Shown here: in pieces, positions 5,008 through 55,811 of the stretch
Layout: each line of letters opens with the position of its first letter
Position numbering within the stretch: the first letter of the stretch is position 1
Assembly (NCBI GenBank): GCA_050012495.1
Contig: JBEKHB010000001.1
Coordinates: forward strand, 11,304-75,303
Origin: Syntrophorhabdales bacterium
GTDB lineage: Bacteria; Desulfobacterota; Syntrophorhabdia; Syntrophorhabdales; WCHB1-27
Length of the DNA stretch: 64,000 bases
Direction of reading: 5' to 3'
Made by a program: the position numbers and the translations under genes
The notes under the pieces: model-generated
Told to the model about the DNA's origin: nothing
What the model saw: the letters and a program-made list of their open reading frames with translations, nothing else
The model's database searches: none

Positions 5008-6216
5008 TCAAAACCTGTTCGTTGTCTTGATAATTGCTGTGACAACCCGTTCCAAATCGCCTTCCGTCATCTGAGTGCCGGACGGCAAACAAAGGCCCCT
5101 GGCGAAAAGCTCTTCGCTTACCTCTCCCCCCACCAAGCGAGCTGGATATCTCTGACCCGGCTGCATCTGCTCGTGAGTCCTCCCTTTGCCCTTTGCCCTG
5201 TGGTTTACTTCGAAGACAGGCTGCATATGCATCGGTTTCCACACGGGCCGCGATTCGATATTCTCCTTTTCAAGAGTCAAACGGATGGATTCCCGGTCAA
5301 CCCCGAATTCCTTCGGATCGATCAGGATAACGGTGAGCCACCTGTTCGACTTCCCATAAGGCGCTTCAGGCATGAACGTTATTCCGGGCAGATCGCCGAG
5401 GGCGTTCCGGTAGTAGTCGAAGATCTCCCGCTTTCTCCTCACCCGCTCATCGAGCACCGTCAATTGGCCCCTTCCTATGGCCGCGACAATGTTGCTCATC
5501 CGGTAGTTGTAGCCGATCTCCGAATGTTCATAATGGGGGAATGGGTCTCTCGCCTGCTGTGAAAGAAATCGAGCTCGCTGAATAAAATCTTTGTCTTCCG
5601 ATGCGAGCATTCCTCCACCGGAAGTCGTGATGATTTTATTTCCGTTGAAGGAATAGATGGACGCTGCGCCGCCTACCCCTGCAGAAGAGCCATTAAAAGT
5701 CGCCCCCAGGGCCTCTGCCGAATCGATGACGACCGGTATGCCGTAGGGCTCGCATATTTGTATGATCCTGGCCAGGTCGCAACTTTGCCCGTAGAGATCT
5801 GTCGGCACCACCGCCTTCGGTAGGGTGCCCGTTTCCTTGCACCGGAAAAGCTCCCCGGCCAGCAAATCGGGGTCCATATTCCAGGTTGATCTATCCGAGT
5901 CGATGAAGACCGGCCGTGCCCCTCCAAAGAGAGTCGGTGTAATGCTTCCGATGAAAGTGTGGTCCGACACAAAAACCTCGTCGCCCGGCCCAACTCCCAG
6001 ATTGCGCACGGCGAGATGCATCGCGGCGGTCCCGCTGGAAAGGGCGACCGCATAAGGGATGCCGATCTTCTCGGAGAACTCCCTTTCGAAGGCATCCACC
6101 ATGGGACCAAGGGGGGCGATATAGTTGCTCTCAAAGGCCTGTTTCACGAATTCGATCTCCCGGCCGGACATGTGGGGAGGGGATAGATAGATCCTCTCTT
6201 TCCCCACGTCACCCAT
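5008..6216 (-). CDS. DegT/DnrJ sugar aminotransferase (PglE/EpsN-like)
   Basis: IYLSPPHM, SSGTAAMHLA, SFNGNKIITTSGGG, GYNYRMSN, GLCLPSG. Confidence 0.95.
   Translation of the reverse strand: MGDVGKERIYLSPPHMSGREIEFVKQAFESNYIAPLGPMVDAFEREFSEKIGIPYAVALSSGTAAMHLAVRNLGVGPGDEVFVSDHTFIGSITPTLFGGARPVFIDSDRSTWNMDPDLLAGELFRCKETGTLPKAVVPTDLYGQSCDLARIIQICEPYGIPVVIDSAEALGATFNGSSAGVGGAASIYSFNGNKIITTSGGGMLASEDKDFIQRARFLSQQARDPFPHYEHSEIGYNYRMSNIVAAIGRGQLTVLDERVRRKREIFDYYRNALGDLPGITFMPEAPYGKSNRWLTVILIDPKEFGVDRESIRLTLEKENIESRPVWKPMHMQPVFEVNHRAKGKGRTHEQMQPGQRYPARLVGGEVSEELFARGLCLPSGTQMTEGDLERVVTAIIKTTNRF
5182..5202. repeat. Heptamer tandem repeat (CCCTTTG)x3, in frame in aminotransferase
   Basis: ccctttg ccctttg ccctgtg, lying in an apparent loop insertion (RAKGKGRTH...). 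Confidence 0.55.
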
Positions 6217-6619
6217 GGCGTTTCTTCTCCATCTCTTTGATCACTTTCACTGGAACCCCTGCGGCTATTACATCATCCGGTATGTCCTTGTTGACGAAAC
6301 TGAATGCGCCGATCACCGCATTCTCTCCCACGGTTACACCGGGCATAATGACACTGTGACTCCCTATCCTGCAATTTTTTTTGAGAACTACCTCCCCTTT
6401 CTTTTCATCAATAGTTGAAATTGAATAGATGGAACAGTGTGAGCCGATTTGAACAGAATCTTCGACTATCACGCCGAATTCAGCATTTATGTAAGTGAAA
6501 GCTCCAATGTCGGTCCCATGGCCCAATTCGAATCTCTCCTTGTGCTGCACCACCCAGTTGTATTTCGTGGGCTTGCCTTCTTCGATTAAGGGGACCTCCC
6601 AGTTTTTGAATCTATCCAT
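6209..6619 (-). CDS. Hexapeptide-repeat acetyltransferase
   Basis: IGSHSVIMPGVTVGENAVIGAFSFVNKDIP...AAGVPVK left-handed beta-helix. Confidence 0.9.
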   Translation of the reverse strand: MDRFKNWEVPLIEEGKPTKYNWVVQHKERFELGHGTDIGAFTYINAEFGVIVEDSVQIGSHCSIYSISTIDEKKGEVVLKKNCRIGSHSVIMPGVTVGENAVIGAFSFVNKDIPDDVIAAGVPVKVIKEMEKKRHG

Positions 6620-12395: not shown

Positions 12396-13679
12396 TTATG
12401 GCAGCCTGTTGTCAGATCTAGGACCAAGAGCGGCCGCAAAAGAGCTCCGTCCTCGTCCGCCATAAAAGGGTAGACGGCAGAGCACACACGTGAAGAATAC
12501 CGCCTGTATCCAAAAACTTAGTCCGGTAAAAAAAAGCTCACCGGCACTGCTTGTCACTAAACTCCCGAATGTCAACCCGTATAGAATTACAAAGGGAGCG
12601 CTATAAGCTGTTGCTTTCTTATAAATCCATGTTGTAATAATTCCGAGACAGAACATAATGATCGCCAATCCAGTTACGCCAAAATCCGTGTAATAAGGAT
12701 AATACATTGTGTATACATTGGTTGGCGATGGCACAAACGTGAAACTAAGAATTCCGGAAGGAACGACAACGGTCGGATCAAAAGCTTTGGCAGCAGCCTT
12801 AAAAAATCTAAAAGTTAAGCCAGTAGTCTCACCCAGATTATCAGGTGCTCTTACAACTTGATCAAACGCTACCGGTCCGCTAAGAGCATACACCAGAGCA
12901 CTCTCCGCTATGCTCGCCAAATTTTCTGTGGCACTTTGATCCTGCGAGCCCCCTTTCTTGAGCAAGATGGCAGGTATAGAGAAAACAAGGGAAAAGACTA
13001 TCAATCCAATTATTAAAGTCTTAATTCTCAACCTGCCCGCGCGAAGCGAGGCCATGCCGATGAGTCCGAAAATAAGTACTATGGCACCGGACCGCGCTGC
13101 CGAAAACAGATGATAGGTTAATGTTATGGCAGCTAAAGTAAAAAAGCGAGTTCTTTGAGCACGCGAGCCATCATCCATATAAAATGAAGTAAAGGTAGCG
13201 AAGGTAGCGAGGGCAGTCAAATAGCCAAACATTCCGAAGGCCTGGTCCCGCGGAACGTCAGTGGCGGTTTGCATTCTGAGGCCCGTATAAAACTCCACAC
13301 CTATCCCATGCATCATACTAAGTCTCTGTAAGCGCATCCAATAAAAGGGGAACGCCAGGAATAAGACCGCTATTGTTATATCGATGACATGCCTTAGAAA
13401 TGCTTGCTGGTACCTTGTTGGCGATCCGTGGGATACGTCTATTCCTCTAGAGAAACGGAGGATTAATAGGCCGCCTAAGCTAAACATAACCGCACCGAGT
13501 AGATATATCATTAAAGTTTCTTCTGAAATTCGATCAAAAAAACCTCCGCATAAGAATAGAGTAAACATCAAGACTGTCCATAAAGTTGAAAAGAGTGCAG
13601 GCGGATACAAGACCGATTTTCCTATTCTGGCGTTAGCCCAACCCAGTATTCCGAGTACAATAACAAAAACGAGAATCAT
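12396..13679 (-). CDS. wzy: Polysaccharide repeat-unit polymerase
   Basis: Many TM segments, PTNVYT...YYTDFG motif typical of the O-antigen polymerase family, Wzx in the same cassette. Confidence 0.8.
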   Translation of the reverse strand: MILVFVIVLGILGWANARIGKSVLYPPALFSTLWTVLMFTLFLCGGFFDRISEETLMIYLLGAVMFSLGGLLILRFSRGIDVSHGSPTRYQQAFLRHVIDITIAVLFLAFPFYWMRLQRLSMMHGIGVEFYTGLRMQTATDVPRDQAFGMFGYLTALATFATFTSFYMDDGSRAQRTRFFTLAAITLTYHLFSAARSGAIVLIFGLIGMASLRAGRLRIKTLIIGLIVFSLVFSIPAILLKKGGSQDQSATENLASIAESALVYALSGPVAFDQVVRAPDNLGETTGLTFRFFKAAAKAFDPTVVVPSGILSFTFVPSPTNVYTMYYPYYTDFGVTGLAIIMFCLGIITTWIYKKATAYSAPFVILYGLTFGSLVTSSAGELFFTGLSFWIQAVFFTCVLCRLPFYGGRGRSSFAAALGPRSDNRLP

Positions 13680-21694: not shown

Positions 21695-22729
21695 TCAACG
21701 CCACGTGCTATAATACTCCAACACCTTCTTCTTTGCCTCCTGGTTTGCGGGGGATAATTCCAAGGCCTTTTCATAGCAGAGCCTCGCTTCCCGGCGCAGG
21801 CCTTGCTTTTCATACACCTCGCCGAGGGCCAACCTGTAATCGGCAACGCGGGGTCTGGCGACGACCAAGGACGACAGTTCCTCCCGCGCCAGATCGAGCC
21901 GGCCTTGACGAACATGGAGATCGGCAAGGAGGTAGTTGAAATCCTGGAGGACGCTTTTCTTTGCTTCCACCTCGATCACCCCCATTTCAGGGGGAGAAAG
22001 GCTTTCATCGGCGAGTATCTTCTTCCATGTGGAGATTGCCTCGACCCTCTCGCCCAGCGCGAAGCAGAGCGCAAGCTTTTTGATGGCAAAGGGCCAATCG
22101 ACAGGGGGCTGTATAACAGTTCGTTTCAACCAGAAGACGGCTCGATTTGTGTCACCTTTCTCGGCGGAGATTGAACCGAGGGCGAGACACAGATGCGGGT
22201 CGGACACAAGCGCGTGGTCAAGGGCAAGGCTGAGGTTCAGATTCAACTCCGCCAGATTCCTGTAAAGGAACCTTTTTTCTTCCGGGATCTCAGGAAGGGC
22301 ATCGGACAGGTAAAGACCTGTTCGAAGGTACGTTTCAGGCCGGCTGGGGTTCAAAGACAGGGCCTTTTCGCACCGCGCAAGACCTTCATCGATCCGGCCA
22401 TGTTTCCCTTCAACCTCGCCCCGCAGCACCCAGGCTTCGGGGTTAATTGCATCGACGCATACGGCCCCGCGCACCGATCTATCGGCATTCGGATCATTGA
22501 TCGCCATCAGTGACCGGGCGAGAAAGGTCTTGTAAGCGGAGGAGAGAGGGTCGAGCATCGATAACCGTTGCAGGATCAAAAGCAGAGTCTCAGGTGTGTA
22601 ATGGGCGGCGGGAGACGGGCAAGTCCAGAGAGAACTCGAATCAATGGCAATGACCAGCTCGCTGAAGCATCTCACGCCGGATAGGTAGACCAGGATGGAC
22701 AAAAGGAAGGTGAGGAGAATCCTGGCCAC
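21695..22729 (-). CDS. TPR-repeat protein with N-terminal membrane anchor
   Basis: TPR patterns (AWVLRGEV...ALSLNP; LALGEVYEKQG...YEKALELSP). Confidence 0.8.
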   Translation of the reverse strand: MARILLTFLLSILVYLSGVRCFSELVIAIDSSSLWTCPSPAAHYTPETLLLILQRLSMLDPLSSAYKTFLARSLMAINDPNADRSVRGAVCVDAINPEAWVLRGEVEGKHGRIDEGLARCEKALSLNPSRPETYLRTGLYLSDALPEIPEEKRFLYRNLAELNLNLSLALDHALVSDPHLCLALGSISAEKGDTNRAVFWLKRTVIQPPVDWPFAIKKLALCFALGERVEAISTWKKILADESLSPPEMGVIEVEAKKSVLQDFNYLLADLHVRQGRLDLAREELSSLVVARPRVADYRLALGEVYEKQGLRREARLCYEKALELSPANQEAKKKVLEYYSTWR

Positions 22730-22732
22730 TGC

Positions 22733-23254
22733 TCACTCTCTTATATCCGCGTGAATTTCCCCCGGGTAATTACGCTCAAACCCGATCCTGCCAGGCCCAG
22801 AGGCTCGATGATCAAATCCCAACGTGAGATCGGCGGGAGGTGGTGCGGCCACGGCCTGTCCCTCCACAGGTTGCAGCCCGGTTTCCTGGTCGCCGCCTTC
22901 CGCTCCCCTGTCTTTGTCAGAGATTCTGCTACTGATGTTCTTTGTTTTTGCGCCGTAGTCGATCTTACGCTTGTTGGCTTTGACCCCCTCTGTGCCCGGT
23001 CCGGGCGTACCCTGGGCATCGGCCGGACTTGCCGCCGAGTCGAGTCTGTCGACATCCAGCATATTCTCAGGTGCATCGGCGGTCTTTCCGCACGTATCCG
23101 CCGTATTCTCGAATACAGGCAGATTGGGCAGGACCGGAAGACGCATTTCACCTGCCATACTCAAGGTGGAAAAGAGAAAGACGATCAGCGGGGCGCATAG
23201 TGCGCATCTTTTCATCCTCTCCGAACGCATCGGCGCCATGTCCTTACGCTCCAT
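22733..23254 (-). CDS. Hypothetical secreted low-complexity protein
   Basis: Signal-like MKRCALCAPLIVFLFSTLSMA. Tight overlap or abutment with both neighbours. Confidence 0.5.
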   Translation of the reverse strand: MERKDMAPMRSERMKRCALCAPLIVFLFSTLSMAGEMRLPVLPNLPVFENTADTCGKTADAPENMLDVDRLDSAASPADAQGTPGPGTEGVKANKRKIDYGAKTKNISSRISDKDRGAEGGDQETGLQPVEGQAVAAPPPADLTLGFDHRASGPGRIGFERNYPGEIHADIRE

Positions 23255-24782
23255 CCTCTCTGCTCCACGAGAAAGACGTATGTACTACCCGCCACGTAAG
23301 GCCCATGATCAAAAAAAGCAGCATGGCGTTGGCCGGGATCTGGAGGTTGAAGTCGGCCAGGGAATGGACGAGCAGGGCCACGATGGCAGCCAGGCCGCTA
23401 GCCCCGAGGAATATCGAGTACCGGCTGCGGCGTGTAAGCAAGGCGCGAACGGAAGAGGCGAGGAACAGAAGAAAGAATGCCAGCCACGGAATGAAGCCGA
23501 TCAGCCCCACTTCCGAAAGAAACTCCAGGTAGTCGTTGTGGGCGTGGTCCATGATCATTGCGCCAAATTTCTGCGGCTTATAAGGGGGGTACGCAAGCTC
23601 ATAGGTACCGAGCCCGGTCCCGGTGAGGGGAAAGTGCTTGATCAACGTAAAGGTGGTTTGCCAGACGAGAAAGCGGTCCTCGTAGCTGGTTTCAATCGTC
23701 TGCCAACGCTCCTCAACCGGGGCCAGGCCTTTCCACATGCCCCAAAGGCACCCCAGACCGAGCACGAGCGCCAGGACAATCGGCAGGGCCGCGTGGCGCG
23801 TTTTTGTCGCGGCCATCAGCAACAGGACGAAGAGCACGGCCGCAGCCAGGCTCAAGTGGGCCATGCGCGACATGGAAAAGATGAGTCCGAGGACCATGAC
23901 GATGATCCCCGCAAACAGGAAATAGAGAAAAAGGAAACGACGGGCCTTGACGCGTGAAGTGATACCGGAGACAAAGAGGCCGATCGAAACAGGTATACAC
24001 ATGTTCATAAGCCCGGCGAAATGGTTGCGGTTGATATAGGTTCCGGTTACACAGTCTATGCAGTACTTTTTCGTGAACCATAGAAGAGAGCCGGAGTGAT
24101 TAAGATAGACATAGAGGCCGTATATCGCGTCGGCAAACCCAATGATGAAGACGGCGACAAGCAGCCGCGTAATCGAAGAATGAAGAAGTGGGTGAGGAAG
24201 TGTTGAGTGTTGAGTGTTGAGTTTTGAGTTTTGAAACCAATAGGCTGGCGAGGGACGGAATGGCGAATCCTGAGGCGTGAACGTGGCGACGACAAAGAAA
24301 ATAGATGCATAGGCCAGCCATTTCAGGAGAGCGGCGCTCGTGGCGGAGAGGCTGAGACTCAAAGGGAGCAGAGGGCATAGAGCAGAGGGCATAGAGCCGG
24401 GACCGAAGGTTGGAGCGAGACCCAGGCGCTGGTAGAGGCCGGCGGCGTTGGGAGACATTTTCTGGAGAAATGAGAAAGGCAAAGGCGCCATCTGAAAAAG
24501 ACAAAAGAGAAGGAAGAGGAAGAGGGGAAACATGAGCCACAGGGTGCGGTGCAAATAGGAAGAATGTGTTGAGTTTTGAGTTTTGAGTTTTGAGTTATCG
24601 GAAGAACGCGACATTTCCGCGTCGAGGCGGGAAAAGTCGGTTGTCCAGAGGTGCAGAAGAAGTAATGAAAAGATCAGAAGCTCCATCGCTGAGTAGGTAA
24701 CGATGTAGACCGAACCAACGGCGGCAGGAGCGCAAATGATGAGCATGATTAAGCCGATGAGAATGATAGGGGAAGAGAACAT
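23244..24782 (-). CDS. O-antigen ligase / oligosaccharyltransferase family (Wzy_C)
   Basis: GTYINRNHFAG, SMSR, GTGLGTY, HAHNDYLE, HSLADFNLQIPAN. Confidence 0.9.
   Translation of the reverse strand: MFSSPIILIGLIMLIICAPAAVGSVYIVTYSAMELLIFSLLLLHLWTTDFSRLDAEMSRSSDNSKLKTQNSTHSSYLHRTLWLMFPLFLFLLFCLFQMAPLPFSFLQKMSPNAAGLYQRLGLAPTFGPGSMPSALCPLLPLSLSLSATSAALLKWLAYASIFFVVATFTPQDSPFRPSPAYWFQNSKLNTQHSTLPHPLLHSSITRLLVAVFIIGFADAIYGLYVYLNHSGSLLWFTKKYCIDCVTGTYINRNHFAGLMNMCIPVSIGLFVSGITSRVKARRFLFLYFLFAGIIVMVLGLIFSMSRMAHLSLAAAVLFVLLLMAATKTRHAALPIVLALVLGLGCLWGMWKGLAPVEERWQTIETSYEDRFLVWQTTFTLIKHFPLTGTGLGTYELAYPPYKPQKFGAMIMDHAHNDYLEFLSEVGLIGFIPWLAFFLLFLASSVRALLTRRSRYSIFLGASGLAAIVALLVHSLADFNLQIPANAMLLFLIMGLTWRVVHTSFSWSREDGA
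24202..24236. repeat. Heptamer array (GTTGAGT)x3-TTTGAGT-TTTGAAA, in frame in ligase gene
   Basis: Direct reading. Encodes FQNSKLNTQHST. Confidence 0.85.
24363..24397. repeat. Heptamer array AGAGGGC/ATAGAGC x5, in frame in ligase gene
   Basis: agggagc agagggc atagagc agagggc atagagc. Encodes SMPSALCPLLP. Confidence 0.8.
24568..24595. repeat. Heptamer array GTTGAGT-(TTTGAGT)x3, in frame in ligase gene
   Basis: Direct reading. Encodes NSKLKTQNST. Confidence 0.85.
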
Positions 24783-24794
24783 TAAGAGCCGTTC

Positions 24795-24815
24795 ACTTAG
24801 AACTCAAAACTCGAC
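24795..24815. repeat. Inverted copy of the ACTCAAA heptamer array at the phosphatase/ligase junction
   Basis: + strand acttaga actcaaa actcgac, opposite orientation to the arrays at 24202 and 24568. Confidence 0.65.
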
Positions 24816-25601
24816 GCTCCGGAAGCCCTGCCTAAGAAGACGCGAAAATAGCCCCGGCTTCTTAGGCAGGGCTTCCGGAGCGTCGATGTGTTTGCCGGCG
24901 ATGATGGCGGCGGGATACTCTTTCACGAGTTTGTGCGCATATTCAGCGCCGATGAGAGATGAAGCGAGCTTGAAGGCCTTCGAGAGCACAGGCGGTCGCC
25001 TCTTGGCTGAATGTGCATCCGACGCAATCACATGGACTAGCTGATATTTGAGCAGCTCCTCGGAGCACTTCCGGATCTCGGGACCGAAGTCTCCGGTGAG
25101 GCTCATGGCCGTCAACTGGACGAGTCCGCCTTTCTCGACCCAGTTCCGCACGATGTCCGTCTTCCCGTGCACGGCGGTGTTCCGCTCCGGGTGCGTGAGA
25201 ATCGGGGTGAAGCCGGCAAGGGTGAGATGGAACATCCATTCGATGTACCTGGGCGGTATCACATGCCGGGGGAATTCCACCATCACGTACCGCATGTTGT
25301 CGTTTACGGTCAACACTTCCCGGTTCTTTACCAGTGAATCGAGATGCTCGTGCACGTGTATATCTGCGCCGGGCAATACCTCTAGAGGGATTTTGCCCCG
25401 CTCGATCTCTGCATTCAGTGTGCGGACCCCGTCGAAAATAACATCGGGGGTGGTATTGTACGTCCCGTTGGGTACGTGCGGCGTGGCAACGATAGTCGTG
25501 ATCCCATCACGGGCTGCGACCAGGCACATCCGGACTGCCTCGTCGAGGTCCTTAGCGCCGTCGTCAAGACCGGGGAGAATATGGGCGTGGAGGTCGATCA
25601 T
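24804..25601 (-). CDS. PHP-family protein-tyrosine phosphatase (CpsB/CapC/YwqE)
   Basis: IDLHAHILPGLDDG, ATPH, THPERN, ASDAH. Confidence 0.95.
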   Translation of the reverse strand: MIDLHAHILPGLDDGAKDLDEAVRMCLVAARDGITTIVATPHVPNGTYNTTPDVIFDGVRTLNAEIERGKIPLEVLPGADIHVHEHLDSLVKNREVLTVNDNMRYVMVEFPRHVIPPRYIEWMFHLTLAGFTPILTHPERNTAVHGKTDIVRNWVEKGGLVQLTAMSLTGDFGPEIRKCSEELLKYQLVHVIASDAHSAKRRPPVLSKAFKLASSLIGAEYAHKLVKEYPAAIIAGKHIDAPEALPKKPGLFSRLLRQGFRSVEF

Positions 25602-25632: not shown

Positions 25633-27888
25633 CTATGCCTGCTGGTCGGGCTGTTTGCTCCCCTTGTTTCCGGAGGGGGATTTCCTGGAAAAAAAACCTT
25701 TTTTGGGCTGGTCCCACTCGTGACGCTTGCGCGTTTTCTTGCCCTCGCCGTCGTGGCCGTAGTAATCATAGTAATGGTAGTAGTAGTGGGAGTAGTGGGA
25801 GTAGTAATAGCTTTCCCGGCCGATATCTATGTTGTTCAGGACAGCGCCTATCACCTTCGCGCCGCTATCTCTCATGACCCTGGACCCGTGTTGGGCCGTT
25901 TCCCTTGTGGTAGCGCCTCCATGGACCACATAGACCACACCGTCCATAAGCTTGCTCAACACCACCGCGTCCGTGACCGAGCTTATCGGGGGGGAATCGA
26001 GGATGATCTTGTCGTAGGCGCCCTTCATCTGATCGATAAATTCCGCCATCTTCTTCGAGCCGAGGAGCTCCGCCGGGTTGGGAGGCACGGGGCCGCAGGT
26101 CATGACATCGAGCTTTTCGTGCAGGACCGATCGATAAATGTCCGGCTCCTCACCTACAATGACGTTGCTCAACCCTCGACGGTTCTCCAGGCCGAAGACC
26201 TTGTGGATCTGAGGCTTCCTCATGTCTGCGTCGACGAGGAGGACGGATTCCCCGGAATAGGCGATCACGAGGGCGAGGTTGGCAGTGATGAACGTTTTGC
26301 CCTCCTTCGGGATAAAACTCCCGATCAGGATCGTTTTGAGGGGGGCGTCGGGTGACGAAAAGAGCACGGCCGTGCGCAGGCTGCGAAACCCTTCCGCGAC
26401 CGTGGACTTTGGCTTATGGTGCACGATGATCTCCGGGCTCGACACTTTTTGCCCTATCTCTTCCATAAAGTTTATCCTGGGGATGAGGGCCAGGCACGGG
26501 GTCTCCAGATACTTCTCGATGTCATCGGGGGTCTTGAGGGTGTTGTCGAGGTACTCGAAGAAAAAGGCCATGCCGCAGCCCATGAAAAGACCGACTACAA
26601 CCGAGAGTAGTATATACTGCAGGGGCTTGGGCCGGGCGGGCAATATCGGCACTTCGGCCCTGTCCACGATCCTTACGTTGGTAGTCCCCAGCTCGCCCGC
26701 CACGCTCGTCTCTTTCAGCCTCTTCAGGAGGTTCTCGTAAAGCTCCCTATTCTTATCCGCCTCCCTGGCGAGCACGCTGTACTCTATCGATCTTTCACTC
26801 AGCTTCTGGGTCTCCGCCTTTTGGCCTTCCACGGCGATGCGCGCATTGGCTTCCCTCGCCCTCGCGATAGCCAGCTCGTTCTTGATGGAGGCCAGCACGT
26901 TCTGTGATTCCGACTTGATCTTCTGCCGGTTGGCCTCGATCTCCGATTTGAGCTGGGTCATTTTCGGGTGCTTTTTACCATACTTCTGGGATAGCTCCGA
27001 CATCTGTGTGACGAGCCTCGCCTCGTTCTCTTTGAGCCTCTGGATCAGGTAATTGTCCATCACCTGGGGCATGGACTCGATGGGTACCCCTTTTGAGAGA
27101 AGGTCCTGCACCTCCTTGTAGCGCGCTTCGACCTCAACCCTCCTCGTCTGTTCGTCGACGAGCCTGCCGGTCAGGCCGCCCAGCTTCTGCATGGCAATGT
27201 TTTCTTTCTCCTTGTCCCCCTGAAAGGGAGTGATCTGCACGATGCCGTACCGTTCTTTATATGCTTGCAGCGCCTGTTCCGATTCCTCGAGGGTCTTCTT
27301 CTGCTCCTCTATCTGCTTCGTGAGGAAGTCCTTGGCCTCACCGGACGTTTCACTCGCCCATGCAATGTTTTGCTCGATGAACCCCTTTGCCGTCATATTG
27401 ACGATGTCTGAGGCGAGGTGCCTGTCCGTGCTTTCGTAACTGATATCGACAAGGCGGCTGTTCCTGATCGGGTCAATTTTCAGGCGCTTTGATAACTTAT
27501 CTGCGAGTAAGGTTTCTTTGGCCTTTTTGTCCAACGTCGAGCCGTGCTGCGATTTCGGTGGATTGAACACGGGGTTCTCTGACAAGTTGAGCGCCTGGAT
27601 CACGCGCAGGGCCAAAGAGCGGCTCTGGAGGACCTTGTACTGGGTCTGGTAGAACTCCGTGCTGTTCACATCAACCGGCAGAAGATCCTGCATGTTGAGT
27701 ACTTTTGGCGCTTCCCTTTCAATCAGTATCCTTGTCGTTGCCTTGTATACGGGCGTCATGACAAAGGAAGCGATGGCAACCGTACCGACAATGATTGCAA
27801 AACAGACCAGGGCAGGGCGACGCCACTTGTAGAGGGTGCGGAGATAGTCATAGATGTGTGTTTCGTTGGTTTGGCCGGGAATGTTCAT
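25633..27888 (-). CDS. wzc: Polysaccharide co-polymerase / BY-kinase (Wzc/GumC)
   Basis: Two TMs with a coiled-coil periplasmic region, EGFRSLRT, PKEGKT Walker A, VDADMRKP, ILDSPP, C-terminal Tyr cluster. Confidence 0.95.
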   Translation of the reverse strand: MNIPGQTNETHIYDYLRTLYKWRRPALVCFAIIVGTVAIASFVMTPVYKATTRILIEREAPKVLNMQDLLPVDVNSTEFYQTQYKVLQSRSLALRVIQALNLSENPVFNPPKSQHGSTLDKKAKETLLADKLSKRLKIDPIRNSRLVDISYESTDRHLASDIVNMTAKGFIEQNIAWASETSGEAKDFLTKQIEEQKKTLEESEQALQAYKERYGIVQITPFQGDKEKENIAMQKLGGLTGRLVDEQTRRVEVEARYKEVQDLLSKGVPIESMPQVMDNYLIQRLKENEARLVTQMSELSQKYGKKHPKMTQLKSEIEANRQKIKSESQNVLASIKNELAIARAREANARIAVEGQKAETQKLSERSIEYSVLAREADKNRELYENLLKRLKETSVAGELGTTNVRIVDRAEVPILPARPKPLQYILLSVVVGLFMGCGMAFFFEYLDNTLKTPDDIEKYLETPCLALIPRINFMEEIGQKVSSPEIIVHHKPKSTVAEGFRSLRTAVLFSSPDAPLKTILIGSFIPKEGKTFITANLALVIAYSGESVLLVDADMRKPQIHKVFGLENRRGLSNVIVGEEPDIYRSVLHEKLDVMTCGPVPPNPAELLGSKKMAEFIDQMKGAYDKIILDSPPISSVTDAVVLSKLMDGVVYVVHGGATTRETAQHGSRVMRDSGAKVIGAVLNNIDIGRESYYYSHYSHYYYHYYDYYGHDGEGKKTRKRHEWDQPKKGFFSRKSPSGNKGSKQPDQQA

Positions 27889-27950: not shown

Positions 27951-28841
27951 TCACCAGAAGCTTTCGGGTACGACGATCGTGTCGCCCGGTTCGATGAGGT
28001 TTTCCATAGTGAGGTAGAGGTCCACCTTCTTACCGTCCTTCTCCCTTACCGTCTTTGCCTTTCTTTTGGCAGCCTTTTCTGTAAAACCACCCGCCGTGCT
28101 GATGGCGTGCAGGACGGTCATCCCCTTCATGAAGGTGTACTGGCCCGGCCGCTTCACTTCTCCCGTCACGTAGAATACCTTGATCTTCGGTACAAAAATG
28201 GTATCGAGGTTAAGCACCTGGATGTTCTGGCTCCTCTCACCTTCGAGGACGTCCCTGAGCCTGACTTTGATAAGCTCGGAGGGATCGGCCTGATCAGGCA
28301 GAAGCGGGGTTTGCACTCCGACTTTTTCCTTGGGCCTGACGATCATGATCTCCTGGTCCGCTTCCGGCTTTACCCCACCCGCCATGGCTATGGCCTCCAC
28401 AAGGAGGGTCTTTCTTGTCAAAGGATATGCCCCGGGGGAGTTAACCTCTCCTATGACAAAGATCTTCTGGCTCCTGTACTCGGTCACTTGCACGCTTACC
28501 TGGGGGTCCACGATGTACCCGTCCGCGAGCATCTCCCTCAGCTTCTTTTCTACCTGAAGCTGACTGAGGCCCGTGACCCGAAGCTCTCCGATAAGGGGAA
28601 AACTTATTTTTCCCTCTATGTTGATCCGCGCTTTCCTTGTCAGATCGGGATGATCCCAGACCGTGATCGAAATCTCGTCTTCGGGGCCTAGCACATAATC
28701 GGCATCGGCGAACACGGCGGAGGGGAGGAGAGAACAGAGAAGGAGAGCCGCGAGGGCGACGCAGGAGGCGCGAAGCACGAAGACAGATAACGAATGACGA
28801 ACGACGCATAACGGGTTCTTGCTATTCATGCACTTATTCAC
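27951..28841 (-). CDS. wza: Polysaccharide export protein (Poly_export + SLBB)
   Basis: DYVLGPEDEISITVW, GKISFPLIG, VIGEV..PG, two SLBB repeats, ends VPESFW. Confidence 0.92.
   Translation of the reverse strand: MNKCMNSKNPLCVVRHSLSVFVLRASCVALAALLLCSLLPSAVFADADYVLGPEDEISITVWDHPDLTRKARINIEGKISFPLIGELRVTGLSQLQVEKKLREMLADGYIVDPQVSVQVTEYRSQKIFVIGEVNSPGAYPLTRKTLLVEAIAMAGGVKPEADQEIMIVRPKEKVGVQTPLLPDQADPSELIKVRLRDVLEGERSQNIQVLNLDTIFVPKIKVFYVTGEVKRPGQYTFMKGMTVLHAISTAGGFTEKAAKRKAKTVREKDGKKVDLYLTMENLIEPGDTIVVPESFW
28761..28814. repeat. Degenerate heptamer array in the Wza N-terminal region
   Basis: ataacga atgacga acgacgc ataacgg (28787-28814), preceded by gcgcgaa gcacgaa. Confidence 0.5.
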
Positions 28842-28892: not shown

Positions 28893-30080
28893 TTAGGGAG
28901 TAAGGATAATCTTGAACATTATGCGGTGGTCGGTATAGGAGTACTGATCAAAGGTGGAATGTGCATCCCTGTACTGGTATTCGAGCCTGGCCTGAAGCCA
29001 TTTTTGTATGTTGTAAAAGGCTGCGGCTCCGCCGCTCCATATCTCGTCGCTGCGCTTTTTCAGCGCACCTGTGACAGGCTCTGTCAGGTTGTCGATATAG
29101 GCGCGTTCCTGATAGGAGATTGCTGCCGTGGCGCCTATCTTGCCCGTGAAGAAATGCTGAAGGGTAAGGGTCATCAACGTGTTGACATAGGAAGCGTTGA
29201 GCAGCATGGTATCATCCGCAAGGGCGCGAAGGGCGTCAAGGGTCAGGCTTGTCCTCGCGTCAAGGTCGTCAACGAGCTGGCCGGCCATGATCCAGTTGCG
29301 GGGACTGTTATCCCTGCCCGCCACGGTCGTGTCAAACTCCTTCCAGCCGTAGCCTACCTTGAAATTCCCCTTCAGCTTTCCCGCAGGGTCAAAGGCAACA
29401 CCCAGATAGGCCAACCGGTCCTTGTGATCTGCAAGACGGTCGGAGACGAAGTCCTTGGCGGCGTAGTCGTACTCGACCAATCCCGACATGCGTGGGAGGA
29501 AACGATAATAGAGGCTTGCACCGACGAGATTATTCGTATATTCCGCGTACCGGTCGCGATACTCGTCGAAGGCCAGATCCTCGCGGTTATACTTCGCCTC
29601 GATCTTCCACCTGTCCGCAAAGCTGTAAGCGGCAGCGGCGTTAAGGAAATTATCATGGAAAGGCATCTGGTGCGTCATTAGCTGGATACGTTCGATGGTG
29701 CTTTTTGTAAAGTTGTCTCCCAGGGTAAACTCCAGGCCGCCCGGCGCAACGAGATGGAGAAGCCCGTTGGCCCGGTGATCCTGGTAATTGTTCGCCGAGT
29801 ACTTGGCGAAGTCGACGAACCCCACCTTGTAGCCGAGGTCGAACGAGCTCTGCCCGAAGAGGTACTTGAGGCCCATACCGGGGGTGACCGTGGTGACGTA
29901 GTCCGACTTCTTGTCCGATTGCGTCAGAAAGAGATTGCTCCTGAACATTTCCTGGAGGTCAAGCTCGGGCAGAAGGGTAAAGTGTCCGTATTCTATTGCG
30001 GCGCCGGCCGGCCTCAGGAGCGAAATCGATAACGCGCAGATGAGCAGCCCCAAAGCAAGGATTCTTTTCAGCCGGCCCAT
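28893..30080 (-). CDS. Outer-membrane beta-barrel for EPS export (BBP2-like)
   Basis: Signal peptide, alternating amphipathic strands, N-terminal SN.F...KKSDYVTTVTPG. Adjacent to wza. AAGGAG RBS. Confidence 0.8.
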   Translation of the reverse strand: MGRLKRILALGLLICALSISLLRPAGAAIEYGHFTLLPELDLQEMFRSNLFLTQSDKKSDYVTTVTPGMGLKYLFGQSSFDLGYKVGFVDFAKYSANNYQDHRANGLLHLVAPGGLEFTLGDNFTKSTIERIQLMTHQMPFHDNFLNAAAAYSFADRWKIEAKYNREDLAFDEYRDRYAEYTNNLVGASLYYRFLPRMSGLVEYDYAAKDFVSDRLADHKDRLAYLGVAFDPAGKLKGNFKVGYGWKEFDTTVAGRDNSPRNWIMAGQLVDDLDARTSLTLDALRALADDTMLLNASYVNTLMTLTLQHFFTGKIGATAAISYQERAYIDNLTEPVTGALKKRSDEIWSGGAAAFYNIQKWLQARLEYQYRDAHSTFDQYSYTDHRIMFKIILTP

Positions 30081-30110
30081 GTTATGCTCCTTTATAAAAC
30101 TCACTGAACT

Positions 30111-30674
30111 TTACCTGGAGGGACTTGCCACGCCACCGCCGCCGGTTGCTCCGATGCCTGCGGTGCCGAACGTTGTTCCACCCGGACCCACTCCGCCGGG
30201 GGCCGGTCCTGCCGGAGCCGTAGTGGCGACCAGAATTGCCATATCCACGGTAGACCGGGAGATGCCATCATTCAGGGCAGCTGTTCGCAGATTATTGAGG
30301 AGACCCACATTACCGCTGACCGCAGTCGCGGCACCGGTGATTACGGAACCGGGGTTGACCCCCGGAATGCCCAGGGCGGCTTTGAGGACGTCGATCGCCC
30401 GGTCCGGCTTTGCCTTCACGGCCGCATGGACGATGCTGTACGCCGACGTTGCTTTCACGGCTATCGCTTCACGGATTACCGGGATACAATCAGCGCCGGC
30501 GGCTATGCATTGGGTAACGATATCCTCTATGGTCACGTTGGCCGTCAGGGCGTTACGTATTACCTGGGACAGGGGCATGCCCGTCGCCATATCGCTTCTG
30601 ACATCAGCTCTCGCGTGTGCATGGATCGAGACAAGGAAGATAAGAAAAAAAAGTGCGAATGATAGTTTTTTCAC
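30111..30674 (-). CDS. Secreted helical protein with Gly/Thr/Pro tail ending GGGGVASPSR
   Basis: AGGAGG RBS plus GTG start, signal peptide VKKLSFALFFLIFLVSIHAHARA, Ala-rich helical repeats, low-complexity tail. Confidence 0.75.
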   Translation of the reverse strand: MKKLSFALFFLIFLVSIHAHARADVRSDMATGMPLSQVIRNALTANVTIEDIVTQCIAAGADCIPVIREAIAVKATSAYSIVHAAVKAKPDRAIDVLKAALGIPGVNPGSVITGAATAVSGNVGLLNNLRTAALNDGISRSTVDMAILVATTAPAGPAPGGVGPGGTTFGTAGIGATGGGGVASPSR

Positions 30675-30861
30675 GGTACCTACCCTCCTCGTAGGGAATA
30701 TCGCGCCAAAAAACACCATCCGGGAATGAAGCCGGCCATGCTGACCGGTCAAACCGGAACTTCCCTCACAGCCTGAGGCGACATGCCCGCCCTTGCCAAC
30801 AGGTAATGGCTCCCGATTGTCCTGGATAGCGGGCTCCACACGTTTATCGGCCGGAAAGAGC

Positions 30862-31053
30862 CTAGTTCCCGTAGACCAGTTTCACGATCGAATCCCGGTA
30901 TATCCGCAAAGACCCCTTGACCTTGATGCCTTTAATTGTCCCCAGCCGATGCCAACGATATACTGTCTTGAGAGAAACGCTGAGGAATGAGGCAACGTCA
31001 TTTGGTCTCAAAAGAGTTTTATCGGGTAGATCCCGATACTTCACGTTATCCAC
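30862..31053 (-). CDS. Excisionase/BldC-like HTH_17 DNA-binding protein (paralog 1)
   Basis: LLRPNDVASFLSVSLKTVYRW...GSLRI. GGAGG RBS. Confidence 0.85.
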   Translation of the reverse strand: MDNVKYRDLPDKTLLRPNDVASFLSVSLKTVYRWHRLGTIKGIKVKGSLRIYRDSIVKLVYGN

Positions 31054-31087
31054 GACACCTCCGAAGCCATTGTGTTAAACTCGTCAG

Positions 31088-31519
31088 TCATCGCTCGTCA
31101 CTTCCTGCGGCGGCAAGTGGGCTCGCTTGTTCCGCGACCTTCGCTCCACATGTCGAGGCGGCAATGAGATGCAGCAGACTTTCGGGATCAAAAGGCTTGA
31201 AAAGGAAGGCGCAAGCGCCCCTCTGAATCGCATCCTCTCTCACATGAACGTTTGCTGTACCACTCATCATGATTACAGGGATATCCAGGTTCTCTCTCCT
31301 GATGTCTTCGAGTACTCCAAACCCGTCAGGAGCCACGCCCAAGTCCACATCCAACACCACCGCACTGAACGCCATCAGCCGGAATTTGTCGATCGCTTCC
31401 CGGCCGTTCGATGCCACTACTGATTTGAGGCCGGCGGCTGTCAGCCAGGAAGAAAGCAGGTCAGCAACCAGATTGTCGTCGTCTACCAGCAATATTAGTG
31501 ACTCGTTGTTCTCCCCCAC
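31088..31519 (-). CDS. Stand-alone response regulator receiver (CheY-like)
   Basis: ILLVDDD, VVLDVDL (phospho-Asp), IPVIMMSG, FLFKPF. GGGGAG RBS before GTG 31519. Confidence 0.88.
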   Translation of the reverse strand: MGENNESLILLVDDDNLVADLLSSWLTAAGLKSVVASNGREAIDKFRLMAFSAVVLDVDLGVAPDGFGVLEDIRRENLDIPVIMMSGTANVHVREDAIQRGACAFLFKPFDPESLLHLIAASTCGAKVAEQASPLAAAGSDER

Positions 31520-31727
31520 AATATCTCCCCAGGATGCCGTCTTGAACGGCGTATTTTCCACCCATCGCAAATCGAGGCCACTCTCTTCTTCGATGAAGTC
31601 CCGGAAACGGGACGCTGTTGCCACTGGTTCGGAAGTGCCGCGGATACCATAGCCATGCAAGGCACATCGGCCAACCGGCTTTTAGACAGGTGATACCGGA
31701 GGCAATGACATGAGTCCGGATGGTGGG

Positions 31728-31739
31728 CAAACTACCGCC
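31728..31739 (-). promoter_or_regulatory. ops-like pause element GGCGGTAGTTTG
   Basis: Exact match to the GGCGGTAGnnTG consensus. Intergenic and oriented toward the left EPS cluster. Confidence 0.7.
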
Positions 31740-31786
31740 TGGGATAGCTTATCAACGGTCCATAAACGCCAGGGCTGCCACAGTTG

Positions 31787-32020
31787 CTATCTTTCGGCAC
31801 CGGACCTTTGCAATAGAGTCAGGATCGAGCCACGGGTTATTCGAAGGGACTTGTTGATCCTGACCCCCTCGATCAAACCAAGCTCAAACCAACGGTAAAC
31901 AGTCCTCTCGGAGACACGCAAAAACGACGCCACTTCGCTGGGCCTTAACATGGTTCTCGGCGGCAATTCTGCTTTCACGTTCAGCTCTTTCACGCTGTCT
32001 TTTTCCTCTGAACCGAGCAT
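31787..32020 (-). CDS. Excisionase/BldC-like HTH_17 protein (paralog 2)
   Basis: MLRPSEVASFLRVSERTVYRW...KSLRI. Confidence 0.85.
   Translation of the reverse strand: MLGSEEKDSVKELNVKAELPPRTMLRPSEVASFLRVSERTVYRWFELGLIEGVRINKSLRITRGSILTLLQRSGAER
31917..31932 (-). promoter_or_regulatory. Possible sigma-54 -24/-12 element (inside HTH paralog 2)
   Basis: TGGCGTCGTTTTTGCG = GG-N10-GC. Lies between the box at 32096-32112 and the ops site at 31739, but is within coding sequence. Confidence 0.35.
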
Positions 32021-32095
32021 ATTATTCACCGATATAGGGAATGATACCATCCGGCGAAAAACCGTGTCTAAGACGCATGGCGGCAATGTCGCTAC

Positions 32096-32112
32096 TGTCT
32101 GAAAAGTTTACA
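32096..32112 (-). promoter_or_regulatory. YGTAAA-N7-GACR box (putative enhancer)
   Basis: Minus strand TGTAAACTTTTCAGACA. Intergenic. Confidence 0.55.
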
Positions 32113-32366
32113 AAAATCCGCGATGGGTACGAGACAGCCTATAAAGAGATTCTATGCGCAGTAGTCATCACCCCGGTCACAATAGAGCAATTGCGAAAGG
32201 CTCACCCGGCGCGAAAAACCGATGAGGGACGATCCAGGCATCCCCACATCACTTCGTTTTCGTTGATTTCTCGCAGGGGAAACTTCGAGTGTCTGCCTCT
32301 TCTTTAGATGGCTACAGCACGGAGATGCATGATTAAAGAAGCCACGGACCGACCCGCCGCCTTCTC

Positions 32367-32588
32367 TTATCCGAGTCCCACGTTCTTTCCACAAGACAAA
32401 AAGTCGACGACGGAGGTGCGCAACACCCTGACGGACCTGTTTAACTTGACGCTTTCCATCAGTCCCATGTCACACCAACGATAGACAGTCTTGGCTGACA
32501 CGCCTAGATAGGCGGCCACCTCCGCAGCCTTCAACAATCTTTTCCTTGGCATATCATCCAGCATAATTTCGTTATTCTCGTTTGCCAT
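32367..32588 (-). CDS. Excisionase/BldC-like HTH_17 protein (paralog 3)
   Basis: LLKAAEVAAYLGVSAKTVYRW...RSVRV. GGGGGAGG RBS with TTG start. Confidence 0.85.
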   Translation of the reverse strand: MANENNEIMLDDMPRKRLLKAAEVAAYLGVSAKTVYRWCDMGLMESVKLNRSVRVLRTSVVDFLSCGKNVGLG

Positions 32589-32974
32589 TGCCTCCCCCCT
32601 ATGGTCACTCTAAGACTGATTTCCAGCCGCATCGTGTGTCTTTCAACATTCCCAGGGTCTTTGCAAACAGGCATCAGGCTGATAGCCTTTCAACAACGCT
32701 ATCACAATTCGGACATCTAGTGAAGGGCTTTTACGACGTCCTCCTTGTGTCCCTCCAACCCCCTTCTGACCTCCCGCACTTTGTCCCGGCCGAACAAGAT
32801 TTTGCCTCCCTTTCATATAGACTCCCCGGCGCACGGAATTCTTCCCTTAATTTCGCTCCATCTTCTGAAAATCGACAAGCCGATGCCATATCCTTCGCTG
32901 CCACCCACGCCCAACGGGTGCGGGGCCCGACCCGCAAGCGTGTACCCCGAAAATTCAACGTTGTCTTTATGCCG

Positions 32975-32991
32975 CGTCAACATGTTTTACA
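32975..32991 (-). promoter_or_regulatory. YGTAAA-N7-GACR box
   Basis: Minus strand TGTAAAACATGTTGACG. Confidence 0.5.
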
Positions 32992-33112
32992 GAGTCAACG
33001 ATGCCGCCAGGAACTGTGGCGGCCTGGAATTTCTTCCATGAAATCGTTGAGGTAGTAATCACGGAAACCCCCGGTATTGCGTTCAGGCTATCACACCCGC
33101 TCCCGCTGTAAG

Positions 33113-33129
33113 TGTAAACTGCGTCGACA
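33113..33129 (+). promoter_or_regulatory. YGTAAA-N7-GACR box
   Basis: TGTAAACTGCGTCGACA (TGT-N11-ACA). Confidence 0.55.
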
Positions 33130-33240
33130 TGTCTATCACTATCCTGCGCTCCCATCATAAAAGAACTGCTGTCCGGCCCCCTTGCTCGGACTCACCTTGA
33201 GTGGAGTAGCGCGGCCCGCCTCATTTCAGAGGGTGATGTA

Positions 33241-33257
33241 TGTAAAGGACCGGGACA
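33241..33257 (+). promoter_or_regulatory. YGTAAA-N7-GACR box (enhancer of promoter 1)
   Basis: TGTAAAGGACCGGGACA, 134 bp upstream of the sigma-54 element. Confidence 0.65.
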
Positions 33258-33374
33258 CTGCGCACGAAGTTGCCGGGCCTTTTCCGGAACCTGTTTCCCG
33301 CACCGGGCCGCCGCTCTCCGTGATTTCAACCACTTGGACGAGTGGGCACCTCATGTGTGCGAGAACCTGCCATG

Positions 33375-33390
33375 TGGCATGCTTATTGTA
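33375..33390 (+). promoter_or_regulatory. Sigma-54 -24/-12 promoter 1
   Basis: TGGCATGCTTATTGTA. Near-consensus, with GT instead of GC at -12. Near-identical copy at 36219. Confidence 0.7.
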
Positions 33391-33598
33391 AACATCGGAT
33401 TCGAGCGCAAAGGCAGTCTGTCAAGGTCATTCATCGTGCTCCCTCTTTTTAGGTCCTGTAAGCGAAGGCAGTTGAGGCGCGGTAACTGGCGCCAATGAAG
33501 ACATCCGCGGAGGAAGTCAGTGCTTCAGCGGGAGGACCGGGGCATGCAGATGACATATCTGAAACGCGTGAACCACGCACCACGGGCATTCATCCGAT

Positions 33599-33610
33599 GG
33601 CGGTAGCCTA
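33599..33610 (+). promoter_or_regulatory. ops-like element GGCGGTAGCCTA
   Basis: One mismatch to GGCGGTAGnnTG. Ends ~35 nt before the first gene of the right cluster. Confidence 0.65.
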
Positions 33611-54491: not shown

Positions 54492-55811
54492 ATGGAAAAA
54501 CTCTTGATCATCTCTTATCACTTCCCCCCCGATTCAGCCATAGGAGCAGTCCGCCCGGCAAAATTCGCCAAGTACCTGCCCGAATTCGGCTGGAAACCCA
54601 TAATCTACACCGTAGATGAAAAGCATTACGAGTCATGCGACGCCTCCAGGTTCGAAGACCTCCTGAGAGGGATCCGGATGTACCGCGCCGACCCCTTTCC
54701 AGGCCTTCTTCAGCTCTATTCGGGAATAAGGTCGCTGAGCACGCCCGCGACAGCACAGGAAGGCAAAGCCGCAAAGAATGAGATGGGCCGTCCGGGCTTT
54801 CCCAAGAGGCTCATCAGCTCCCTCTTGCGCCTGCCGGACGAGCATCAGGGCTGGGTCTTGAGCATAGCGGCTCATGGGAGGCGCATTTTGAAGGAACACG
54901 GCGCCAGGGTATTTATGACTTCCGGTCCTCCCATGAGTACGCACCTCGGCGGGCTTCTGCTGAAGAAGATGACGGGGGTCTGCTGGATAGCCGATTTCAG
55001 GGACCCGTGGACGACCATGCAGGAGTGGAAAGACGAGGCATTTCGATCGGACGCGGCCTTGCGGATCGAACGATGGCTCGAAAGAAAGACGGTGAGCGCG
55101 GCGGACGGCATCGTCACCACGGCCCCCAGTGTCACCCGGTACTTTCAATCGCTCCTCCCCCGGGAAGAGAGGGGGAAGGTTATCACGATCACCAACGGTT
55201 ATGACAACAGCGATTTCCAGGGCCTGCCGCAGCCTGAGGCAAACCCTCCCGGAATGCGCCTCACCCATGCCGGCTCTCTTTATCTCGGCCGCAATCCCGA
55301 GCCCCTTTTTGGCGCCCTCCGGAACCTTATCGACAAGGGCGCGATCGGCTCATGTGAGGTCCAGGTAGATTTTATCGGTGATCCGCATTACAGCGGCGCC
55401 CCGCTTTCCGCCATGGTGCAAAAGCATGACCTCGCACAGACCGTATCGCTCTCAGGGAAAATGGACTCCCGTGCGTGTTTTCAGAGATTGCTGGACTCCC
55501 GGGGCCTTCTGCTCCTTGCCCAGGACCAGCCACAGGAGATACCCGGAAAGGTATTCGAATACCTGCGCCTTAACAAGCCGACGTTGGTGATAACCGGTGA
55601 GGGCGACACAAAAGATCTCCTGCTGGATTTCCCCAATTTCTTCCTTGCCGATCCCCAAAAGCCGGGAGAGATAGAAGAAAAATTACTGGAGACGATAAGA
55701 CACATGAGGAGCAAACGGCGCACCGGGCCGCAGGGCGGGATCATGCGGTATGACCGCAGGGCGCTCACGGCCGAACTCTCCTCATGGCTATCCGCAAGGA
55801 GGTTCTCGTGA
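54492..55811 (+). CDS. GT4 glycosyltransferase
   Basis: SYHFPP...GAVR..KFAKYL, SGPP, ADFRDPW, NGYD, PGKVFEYL. Confidence 0.9.
   Translation: MEKLLIISYHFPPDSAIGAVRPAKFAKYLPEFGWKPIIYTVDEKHYESCDASRFEDLLRGIRMYRADPFPGLLQLYSGIRSLSTPATAQEGKAAKNEMGRPGFPKRLISSLLRLPDEHQGWVLSIAAHGRRILKEHGARVFMTSGPPMSTHLGGLLLKKMTGVCWIADFRDPWTTMQEWKDEAFRSDAALRIERWLERKTVSAADGIVTTAPSVTRYFQSLLPREERGKVITITNGYDNSDFQGLPQPEANPPGMRLTHAGSLYLGRNPEPLFGALRNLIDKGAIGSCEVQVDFIGDPHYSGAPLSAMVQKHDLAQTVSLSGKMDSRACFQRLLDSRGLLLLAQDQPQEIPGKVFEYLRLNKPTLVITGEGDTKDLLLDFPNFFLADPQKPGEIEEKLLETIRHMRSKRRTGPQGGIMRYDRRALTAELSSWLSARRFS

Follow-up and report, generated by a model that had tools for sequence, protein, structure and literature searches.

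A secreted protein with a conserved Ser-Pro end at the head of a polysaccharide export operon: a candidate acceptor and tether for the exported chain

The available part of a 2025 review treats the release of Wzy-type polymers from the lipid carrier, and their attachment to Gram-negative cells, as an unsolved problem, and states that it is not known exactly how such capsules are retained in these bacteria (PMC12220298); the anchors listed in the available text of a further source are Wzi, lipid and LCP only (PMC13721041). The question is raised in concrete form by a 64,000-nucleotide stretch of DNA from a Syntrophorhabdales bacterium (GenBank assembly GCA_050012495.1, contig JBEKHB010000001.1, positions 11,304 to 75,303), which we refer to as the window, and in which a small secreted protein heads an operon for polysaccharide export. 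An earlier note on this DNA had suggested that the protein could be a dedicated acceptor or carrier of the polysaccharide, with its Gly-rich Ser-Pro tail serving as a sorting or glycosylation signal. What, then, is this protein for?

The protein, referred to below as the tail protein, is the 187-residue product of a minus-strand open reading frame (30111..30674) that starts with GTG and ends GGGGVASPSR-stop; the plus strand of the same interval contains stops and is not an open frame. A signal peptide was assigned by eye to residues ~1-23 (MKK, a hydrophobic stretch, then AHARA/D), and an AlphaFold model built on a 7-row alignment predicts nine helices forming an Ala-rich solenoid over residues 25-152 and a disordered segment at 156-187 (pLDDT <50). 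The Thr/Pro/Gly linker, placed at residues 153-182 by sequence and model, leads into the A-S-P-S-R tail (30114..30128, minus strand), in which the nearly invariant Ser184 is the predicted glycan acceptor. Neither the sequence nor the model contains a C-terminal hydrophobic helix. The features described beforehand, namely the open frame, the Ala-rich repeats (CIAAGAD, AVKAKPDRA and ALGIPGV are all present), the linker, the GGGGVASPSR end and the lack of a TM anchor, all hold. No Pfam or NCBIfam family matches the protein, fold searches with the helical domain return generic or designed helical repeats only (best Foldseek E 0.24; best structural match Z 8.8, rmsd 3.6 over 145 aligned residues), and in the protein atlas it falls with nameless clusters at 0.91-0.92. 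The gene is present in a single copy in the host genome, and plasmid searches with two tail proteins as queries gave no match.

The position at the head of the operon is also borne out, the BBP2_2 outer-membrane barrel starting on the same strand 7-28 nt past the tail-gene stop, depending on the start codon chosen; from this spacing alone we infer that the tail gene and the downstream cassette are co-transcribed. In the 3' direction, and all on the minus strand, follow the barrel (28893..30083; predicted to have 18 strands and no plug), a Wza/OPX protein with Poly_export and SLBB domains (27951..28841), a Wzc co-polymerase/tyrosine kinase (25633..27888), a CpsB/CapC PHP phosphatase (24804..25601), an RbmD-like Wzy_C ligase (23244..24782), a 173-aa ORF without a family (22733..23254), which has a homologue in one of the four family loci examined, and a membrane-anchored TPR protein (21695..22729). 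In several relatives the TPR protein and the ligase are one fused protein. Upstream of the tail gene lies a single-domain response regulator (31088-31660, minus strand), a homologue of which is also found near the tail gene in two family loci, L010 and L013. The interval 30680-33600 is a 3 kb gap between two divergent polysaccharide regions, the second of which (33645-64000, plus strand) carries an XrtA/PEP-CTERM-type priming transferase and a deacetylase, together with ABC-type wzm/wzt genes and a Wzy_C gene of its own. Among the glycosyltransferases on the other side, a multi-pass membrane protein without a Pfam match (12396-13679, minus strand) is a possible polymerase of the downstream cluster.

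The Wzy_C protein of the cassette (motifs TGTxxNRNHFAG, SRM, DHAHNDY and DFNLQIPAN) is predicted to transfer the chain to the tail. It has the conserved Arg and a His-Ala-His-Asn sequence, its nearest solved structure is 7TPG, which we take to be a WaaL, and neither a PglL_A nor a Wzy_C_2 domain is reported for the cassette-type ligase. By its profile scores it is distinct from the pathway polymerase: the second Wzy_C gene of the window, in the divergent synthesis cluster (55784-57064), scores 67 bits against the ligase profile as opposed to 526 bits for the cassette ligase, which is itself a member of that profile. The Wzy_C domain and the conserved Arg/His are shared with the Wzy_C O-oligosaccharyltransferases (O-OTases; PilO/TfpO, TfpM, PglS and the general PglL) and with WaaL. 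O-OTases follow acceptor rules that call for a Ser near the C-terminus in low-complexity sequence, a feature common to their acceptors and the tail protein; unlike in the known pairs, the acceptor candidate is not a pilin and the ligase lies in a polymer export operon.

The tail is kept among homologues, a lack of which had been named beforehand as refuting: close homologues all end ASPSR, and a family profile search returned 171 proteins, of which 153 sequences were counted (the query appearing twice among them). SP plus 0-5 residues closes 92 of the 153, and SxN closes many of the others. Within the bacterial family of the host, the tail gene is found in 4 of 21 other genomes; in three of these it immediately precedes the barrel, once in frameshifted form, and in the fourth it adjoins other polysaccharide genes. 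Across 38 aligned tails on unrelated passengers the Ser alone is nearly invariant, and the linkers are variously Gly-, Pro-, Glu- or Gln-rich; the conserved element, as read from these alignments, is [A/V]-S-P and not the Gly run, and since the Gly run is swapped for other linker types in many members, the signal would be the serine. The proposed Gly-rich SP tail is therefore upheld in its Ser-Pro part, the Gly run being just one kind of linker. The passengers encoded upstream of barrels are secreted proteins of 130-830 aa with Ala-rich helices, FecR-like domains or others, and their shared end is far from chance: [AVIGTSP]SP plus 0-5 residues ends 57 of the 3719 ORFs of the host genome, a background of 1.5%, and among the 30 genes that precede the best-scoring barrels the same motif ends 15, ~30-fold over background. 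One locus, L133, encodes two tail proteins, one Ala-rich and one FecR-like (1775-2503 and 5203-6447), both ending GGGVASPS-x. Protein P0009 has the helical unit in four tandem copies, each with a GADP..ATAAG motif at its end. Secreted Ala-rich helical proteins of 250 aa that lack the tail form a family in marine gammaproteobacterial-type genomes (L155, L156, L157, L159) and are not linked to polysaccharide genes. In the host genome itself, a 533-aa secreted protein (L235:4977-6578; G000:C21) ends ...GGGSSSFTVSPSSPILY and is possibly a distant tail; its gene adjoins a priming transferase and ABC export genes.

Linkage was surveyed from the barrel, in the 30 best PF10082 loci of 151 genomes of the window's phylum, chosen regardless of neighbours. 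In 15 of the 30 the gene directly upstream encodes a secreted [AVIGS]SP-x protein, with passengers of 190-550 aa in this set, and in a quickly built tree that covers 28 of the barrels, the two truncated loci being left out, the tail gene lies directly upstream in 15 of 18 loci on one side and in 0 of 10 on the other, where the barrels sit behind Wza or a kinase. The barrel profile further matches 106 of 401 Pseudomonadota genomes, so that the reach of the cassette is wide, with only some of these genomes carrying ligase and tail. A recurrent set of barrel, Wza, Wzc, PHP, TPR, ligase and tail gene is found there, and among 60 barrel loci analysed of the 120 places listed, the tail, called by eye, is present in 15 of 21 loci with an RbmD-like ligase and in 1 of 39 without; these counts include kin and are hence not independent, so that p-values drawn from such counts are overstated. 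For the six ligase-only loci, a tail gene is found elsewhere in three of the genomes and a cut-off homologue in one. Syntenic linkage to the barrel, the Wzy_C ligase and the TPR gene, which the earlier note had set as a test of its idea, thus holds across phyla. Three family genomes have, upstream of the tail gene, two conserved genes that are missing from the window (L010:6047-8023, L011:12663-14774, L012:12752-14872); their products are ~280 aa and ~360 aa long, the longer one starting with a twin-arginine-like leader. The G005 locus L232 is a decaying operon with insertion sequences in wzc, in which barrel and Wza are intact and the tail gene, phosphatase and ligase have been lost together.

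The same surveys bear on a different explanation, in which the tail would be a barrel-binding signal and the protein would either plug or gate the 18-stranded barrel or be a passenger secreted through it in a two-partner or type XI manner. The tree just described favours it, as does the window's phylum at large, where tail and ligase do not go together within a stretch: 8 of 16 tail stretches have no ligase nearby. But in support of the ligase link, a strong ligase is encoded elsewhere in 9 of the 10 tail genomes that lack one in the stretch (one of the 10 being proteobacterial); the exception, G006, has no strong ligase, a deviant tail and no barrel of the window-type clade, and in the ligase search within the host's family, where tail-less genomes were also covered, 6 of 22 genomes match. 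Further in favour of the barrel-binding explanation are the barrel model, which predicts no plug of its own, locus L078, where barrel, Wza and tail gene stand together with the ligase far away, and P0144, where an Ala-rich repeat is fused to a BBP2_2 barrel, possibly as an assembly artefact. Against this, the Pseudomonadota tail gene is usually paired with the ligase and often on the opposite strand from the barrel; in two family genomes a Wza-Wzc-TPR-PHP-ligase cassette has no barrel and yet starts with the gene of a secreted protein whose deviant tail reads SESSP or SESTP (L233:16497-17306, L234:2619-3425; one contig ends nearby); and the TAAG site and lapG/lapD genes discussed below are left unexplained. 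A Ser-Pro end is, moreover, a poor beta-strand signal. By sequence the window barrel has no relative of solved structure, its model has no periplasmic TPR or POTRA domains, and it is a BBP2_2 barrel and not a cognate Slam or TpsB barrel of the type XI and two-partner systems, a SlipAM match being below cut-off; a complex prediction for the barrel with the last 32 residues scored 0.01 and was weighed neither for nor against. On balance we consider a barrel-directed role of the tail unlikely, at roughly one chance in five.

The cassette has a counterpart in a model organism. The vps/rbm locus of Vibrio cholerae was located through the published rbmD primer sequence, which matches exactly in 1 of 285 genomes of one genus; the matched locus is laid out like vps/rbm, and its VpsL, VpsM, VpsN and VpsO have the lengths given in a table in the available part of the source (PMC13726011). 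Gene by gene, the cassette of the window corresponds to rbmE-rbmD/vpsMNOP: barrel, Wza and Wzc are the counterparts of VpsM, VpsN and VpsO, the TPR protein is the positional counterpart of the TPR-like VpsP, and the rbmD product belongs to the ligase family (27% and E 2e-26 against the ligase of the window). Directly upstream of rbmD, at the rbmE/rbmEF position, lies a gene for a 201-aa secreted Ala-rich protein with the end GGGTASPN. The window protein has the RbmE(F)-like layout of signal peptide, Ala-rich helices, linker and S-P end, and like RbmE(F) it is linked to RbmD and VpsM homologues. By position it is the counterpart of RbmE(F), and perhaps distantly so by sequence, where a direct comparison with RbmE gives only a weak match (27% over 107 aa, BLAST E 4e-4); RbmE matches the broad profile A4 with 58.6 bits and not the close-family profile A2, and hhalign of A2 against A9, which includes four rows first found with A2, gives 98.9%. 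The two systems thus share, across rbmDEF and vps-II (vpsL-Q), the tail gene, ligase, VpsM, VpsN, VpsO and a TPR-like VpsP, and differ in that RbmE (L212) carries a TAAG-type site, AIAGGADPGSITEPTAAG, absent from the window protein, and in gene order. Among 30 ligase loci of the genus Vibrio, a script calls a tail gene immediately upstream in 22, with xAAG in 21 of these, and inspection by eye does so in 24; in 6 of the 30 no tail gene was found within 1.5 kb upstream. VpsQ was considered as the V. cholerae tail protein and ruled out, being VanZ-like (PMC13726011, in the part available).

Published work on these genes, as far as the available parts of the papers go, reports that rbmDEF is consistently paired with vps-2 and that annotations often merge rbmE/F into a single gene (PMC11451748), and that RbmD is oligosaccharyltransferase-like, of unknown function, with effects that require vps genes (vps-I) (PMC6901666). 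rbmD and rbmE are known in one model organism, with no function attached to them, and in the main texts of the literature searched we found nothing on RbmE function, on its tail or on a LapG-cleaved polysaccharide tether. Two published results for V. cholerae speak against a tether: RbmD did not use the diNAcBac donor, which most O-OTases accept (PMC6901666, accessible portion), and the poor dispersal of V. cholerae lapG mutants, which show ~sixfold less biofilm polysaccharide stain than rbmB mutants, is attributed by the authors, in the text available, to FrhA and CraA (PMC7768729).

The TAAG site links many of the proteobacterial tail proteins to the LapA/LapG/LapD system (also CdrA), with which these relatives share a folded periplasmic domain, a GADPT..ATAAG site and a linker. 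The earlier note mentions neither the site nor the lapG/lapD linkage of the relatives. The LapA protease site (AIAAGADPT..ATAAG) occurs in many proteobacterial tail proteins, in seven of them 26-39 residues before the end; where a LapA-type adhesin (L138) reads AIAAGADPTQTGEATAAG, tail proteins read AITAGADPTTVGEATAAG (L051) and AALLAGLDPTEVSEATAAG (L150). Unlike LapA, the tail protein has a Sec signal peptide in place of type I secretion, is 187 aa long and has no adhesin body, RTX repeats or TolC; the NF033682 retention-module matches of its relatives are weak (E 2e-5 to 0.035, at most 41 bits against a cut-off of 50 bits), and the window protein gives none. The genes lapG and lapD, confirmed by Pfam, adjoin the tail gene in many relatives: the order lapG-lapD-tail-ligase is found in eight loci (L051, L052, L063, L067, L094, L154, L178, L181), and in L053 the pair follows the tail gene. 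In Pseudoalteromonas sp. THAF3 a run of lapG, lapD, tail gene (WP_138548842.1) and ligase gene (WP_022945831.1) borders on a VPS-like cluster. Locus L051, recorded as Flavobacterium, has a layout near-identical to that of Paraglaciecola L052, and its label may be wrong. LapG is encoded in 12 of 20 tail-bearing Pseudomonadota genomes, whereas the window's phylum gave none in 22 genomes. Among those 20, the tail protein has a strict [TP]AAG close to its end in 7 of the 12 LapG-positive and 0 of the 8 LapG-negative genomes; five LapG-positive genomes lack it, and among the LapG-negative ones L123 has TAAG 47 residues from the end and L054 has SAAG. Just one of the 12 LapG-positive genomes (G445) encodes an adhesin whose retention module scores over the cut-off, which makes the tail protein a candidate LapG substrate in these genomes. 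In the host, LapG and a TAAG-type dialanine site are both absent, from the genome and the window protein respectively; the missing site is in line with the LapG-less genome, and a tether there would not be cut by the LapG route. In Caulobacter, a capsule export locus holds a LapG relative, HvyA, and a ligase-like gene; HvyA activity prevents capsulation and its target was not found, according to the portion of the source at hand (PMC4241560). Since we identified no tail protein in the alphaproteobacterial loci L077, L095 and L109, the link to HvyA is one of analogy only. Small secreted proteins with Pro-rich ends are encoded just upstream of alphaproteobacterial-type barrels in L077 (8665-9135), which also carries a LapG relative, and in L095 (10806-11279), and are possible divergent equivalents.

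From these comparisons, the conserved tail, the cross-phylum linkage and the RbmD-family ligase, which together lend support to the acceptor idea of the earlier note, we propose that the tail protein is likely, with a probability of about 0.55, a dedicated acceptor and tether for the polysaccharide exported by its operon. Wzy-type chains grow at the reducing end on the lipid carrier, so the reducing end would be the last to leave. Once complete, the chain would be passed by the RbmD-like ligase from the lipid carrier to the tail serine, which would free the lipid and fix the chain to protein; the chain and the 30-residue linker would follow into the Wza/barrel channel, and the N-terminal domain, too folded to pass, would remain on the periplasmic side and act as a stopper in the manner of LapA. 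In LapG-bearing relatives, a cut by LapG at TAAG, at low c-di-GMP, would shed the chain with its linker. Glycosylation, a long-polymer glycan, threading, retention and release are thus all steps that we infer. The wider claim, that this is a widespread anchor, a mini retention module loaded covalently by an RbmD-like ligase, lodged in the export channel, cut by LapG and controlled by c-di-GMP, with RbmE as the V. cholerae anchor and a new LapG substrate and with an equivalent protein as the HvyA target, is put forward tentatively, at somewhat less than even odds. In the main texts of the literature searched, we found in print neither the tail nor its modularity nor its link with the Lap protease. 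A point against the tether is that prmB, a hypothetical gene upstream of the barrel in the Sphingomonas promonan cluster, is dispensable for polysaccharide production, as stated in the accessible text (PMC11340318), although prmB may not be a tail gene at all, and a tether need not affect production.

A more modest glycoprotein would explain part of the evidence equally: the tail protein may take single repeat units only and act as an accessory of the matrix or envelope, or as a sink for lipid-carrier recycling, instead of tethering a long polymer. The ligase linkage is the same for both explanations, and Wzy_C O-OTases with dedicated acceptors (for example PilO/TfpO, and PglS on pilins) usually transfer short glycans. 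It would also suit the report, in the part of the paper available, that rbmD, rbmE and rbmF mutants merely modulate rugosity, colony and biofilm form (PMC8295476). The cassette, however, travels with barrel, Wza and Wzc and not with synthesis genes, both in our loci and in the available portion of a published comparison (PMC11451748), and the succession of stopper, site and linker is the one by which LapA is retained in a pore; a short glycan seems to us improbable as the whole answer, about as much so as a barrel signal. That this is an ordinary low-complexity secreted protein with an end of no special role, as its lack of a family beyond a generic helical-repeat fold and the joint loss of tail gene, ligase and phosphatase in G005 could suggest, is very improbable and largely refuted by the recurrence of one end, ~30-fold over background, on unrelated domains encoded at a single genomic position.

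An acceptor-tether would be set apart from the systems closest to it. The class 3 OPX translocon (EpsX/EpsY, WzpB/WzaB) shares the 18-stranded barrel, short Wza and Wzc, the three components named in the text available (PMC12819527), to which the window adds tail protein, ligase and TPR protein. Wzi lectin, glycolipid anchors and LCP ligases have the same role of keeping the capsule on the cell; none has a covalent protein tether of the kind proposed. With PEP-CTERM/exosortase systems the tail has in common a C-terminal motif on varied passengers that is linked to polysaccharide loci, but the tail protein has no PEP motif, transmembrane helix or basic cluster, and its cassette has no exosortase and usually one tail gene. 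The suggestion that the tail is an alternative to PEP-CTERM finds no support in the host genome, which encodes one tail protein beside three exosortases (contigs C22, C61, C81) and six clear PEP-CTERM-type proteins, this latter system going with another barrel clade; a single tail protein beside a full PEP-CTERM set indicates a dedicated component and not a general sorting signal.

The finding names a candidate acceptor protein, residue, enzyme and release protease, and thereby makes the question of how Wzy-type polymers are attached directly testable. It offers a function hypothesis for V. cholerae rbmD, rbmE and vpsP and, if true, would tie protease control by c-di-GMP to polysaccharide shedding. 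As a short C-terminal glycosylation tag on interchangeable carriers, the tail could also be useful for glycoconjugate work.
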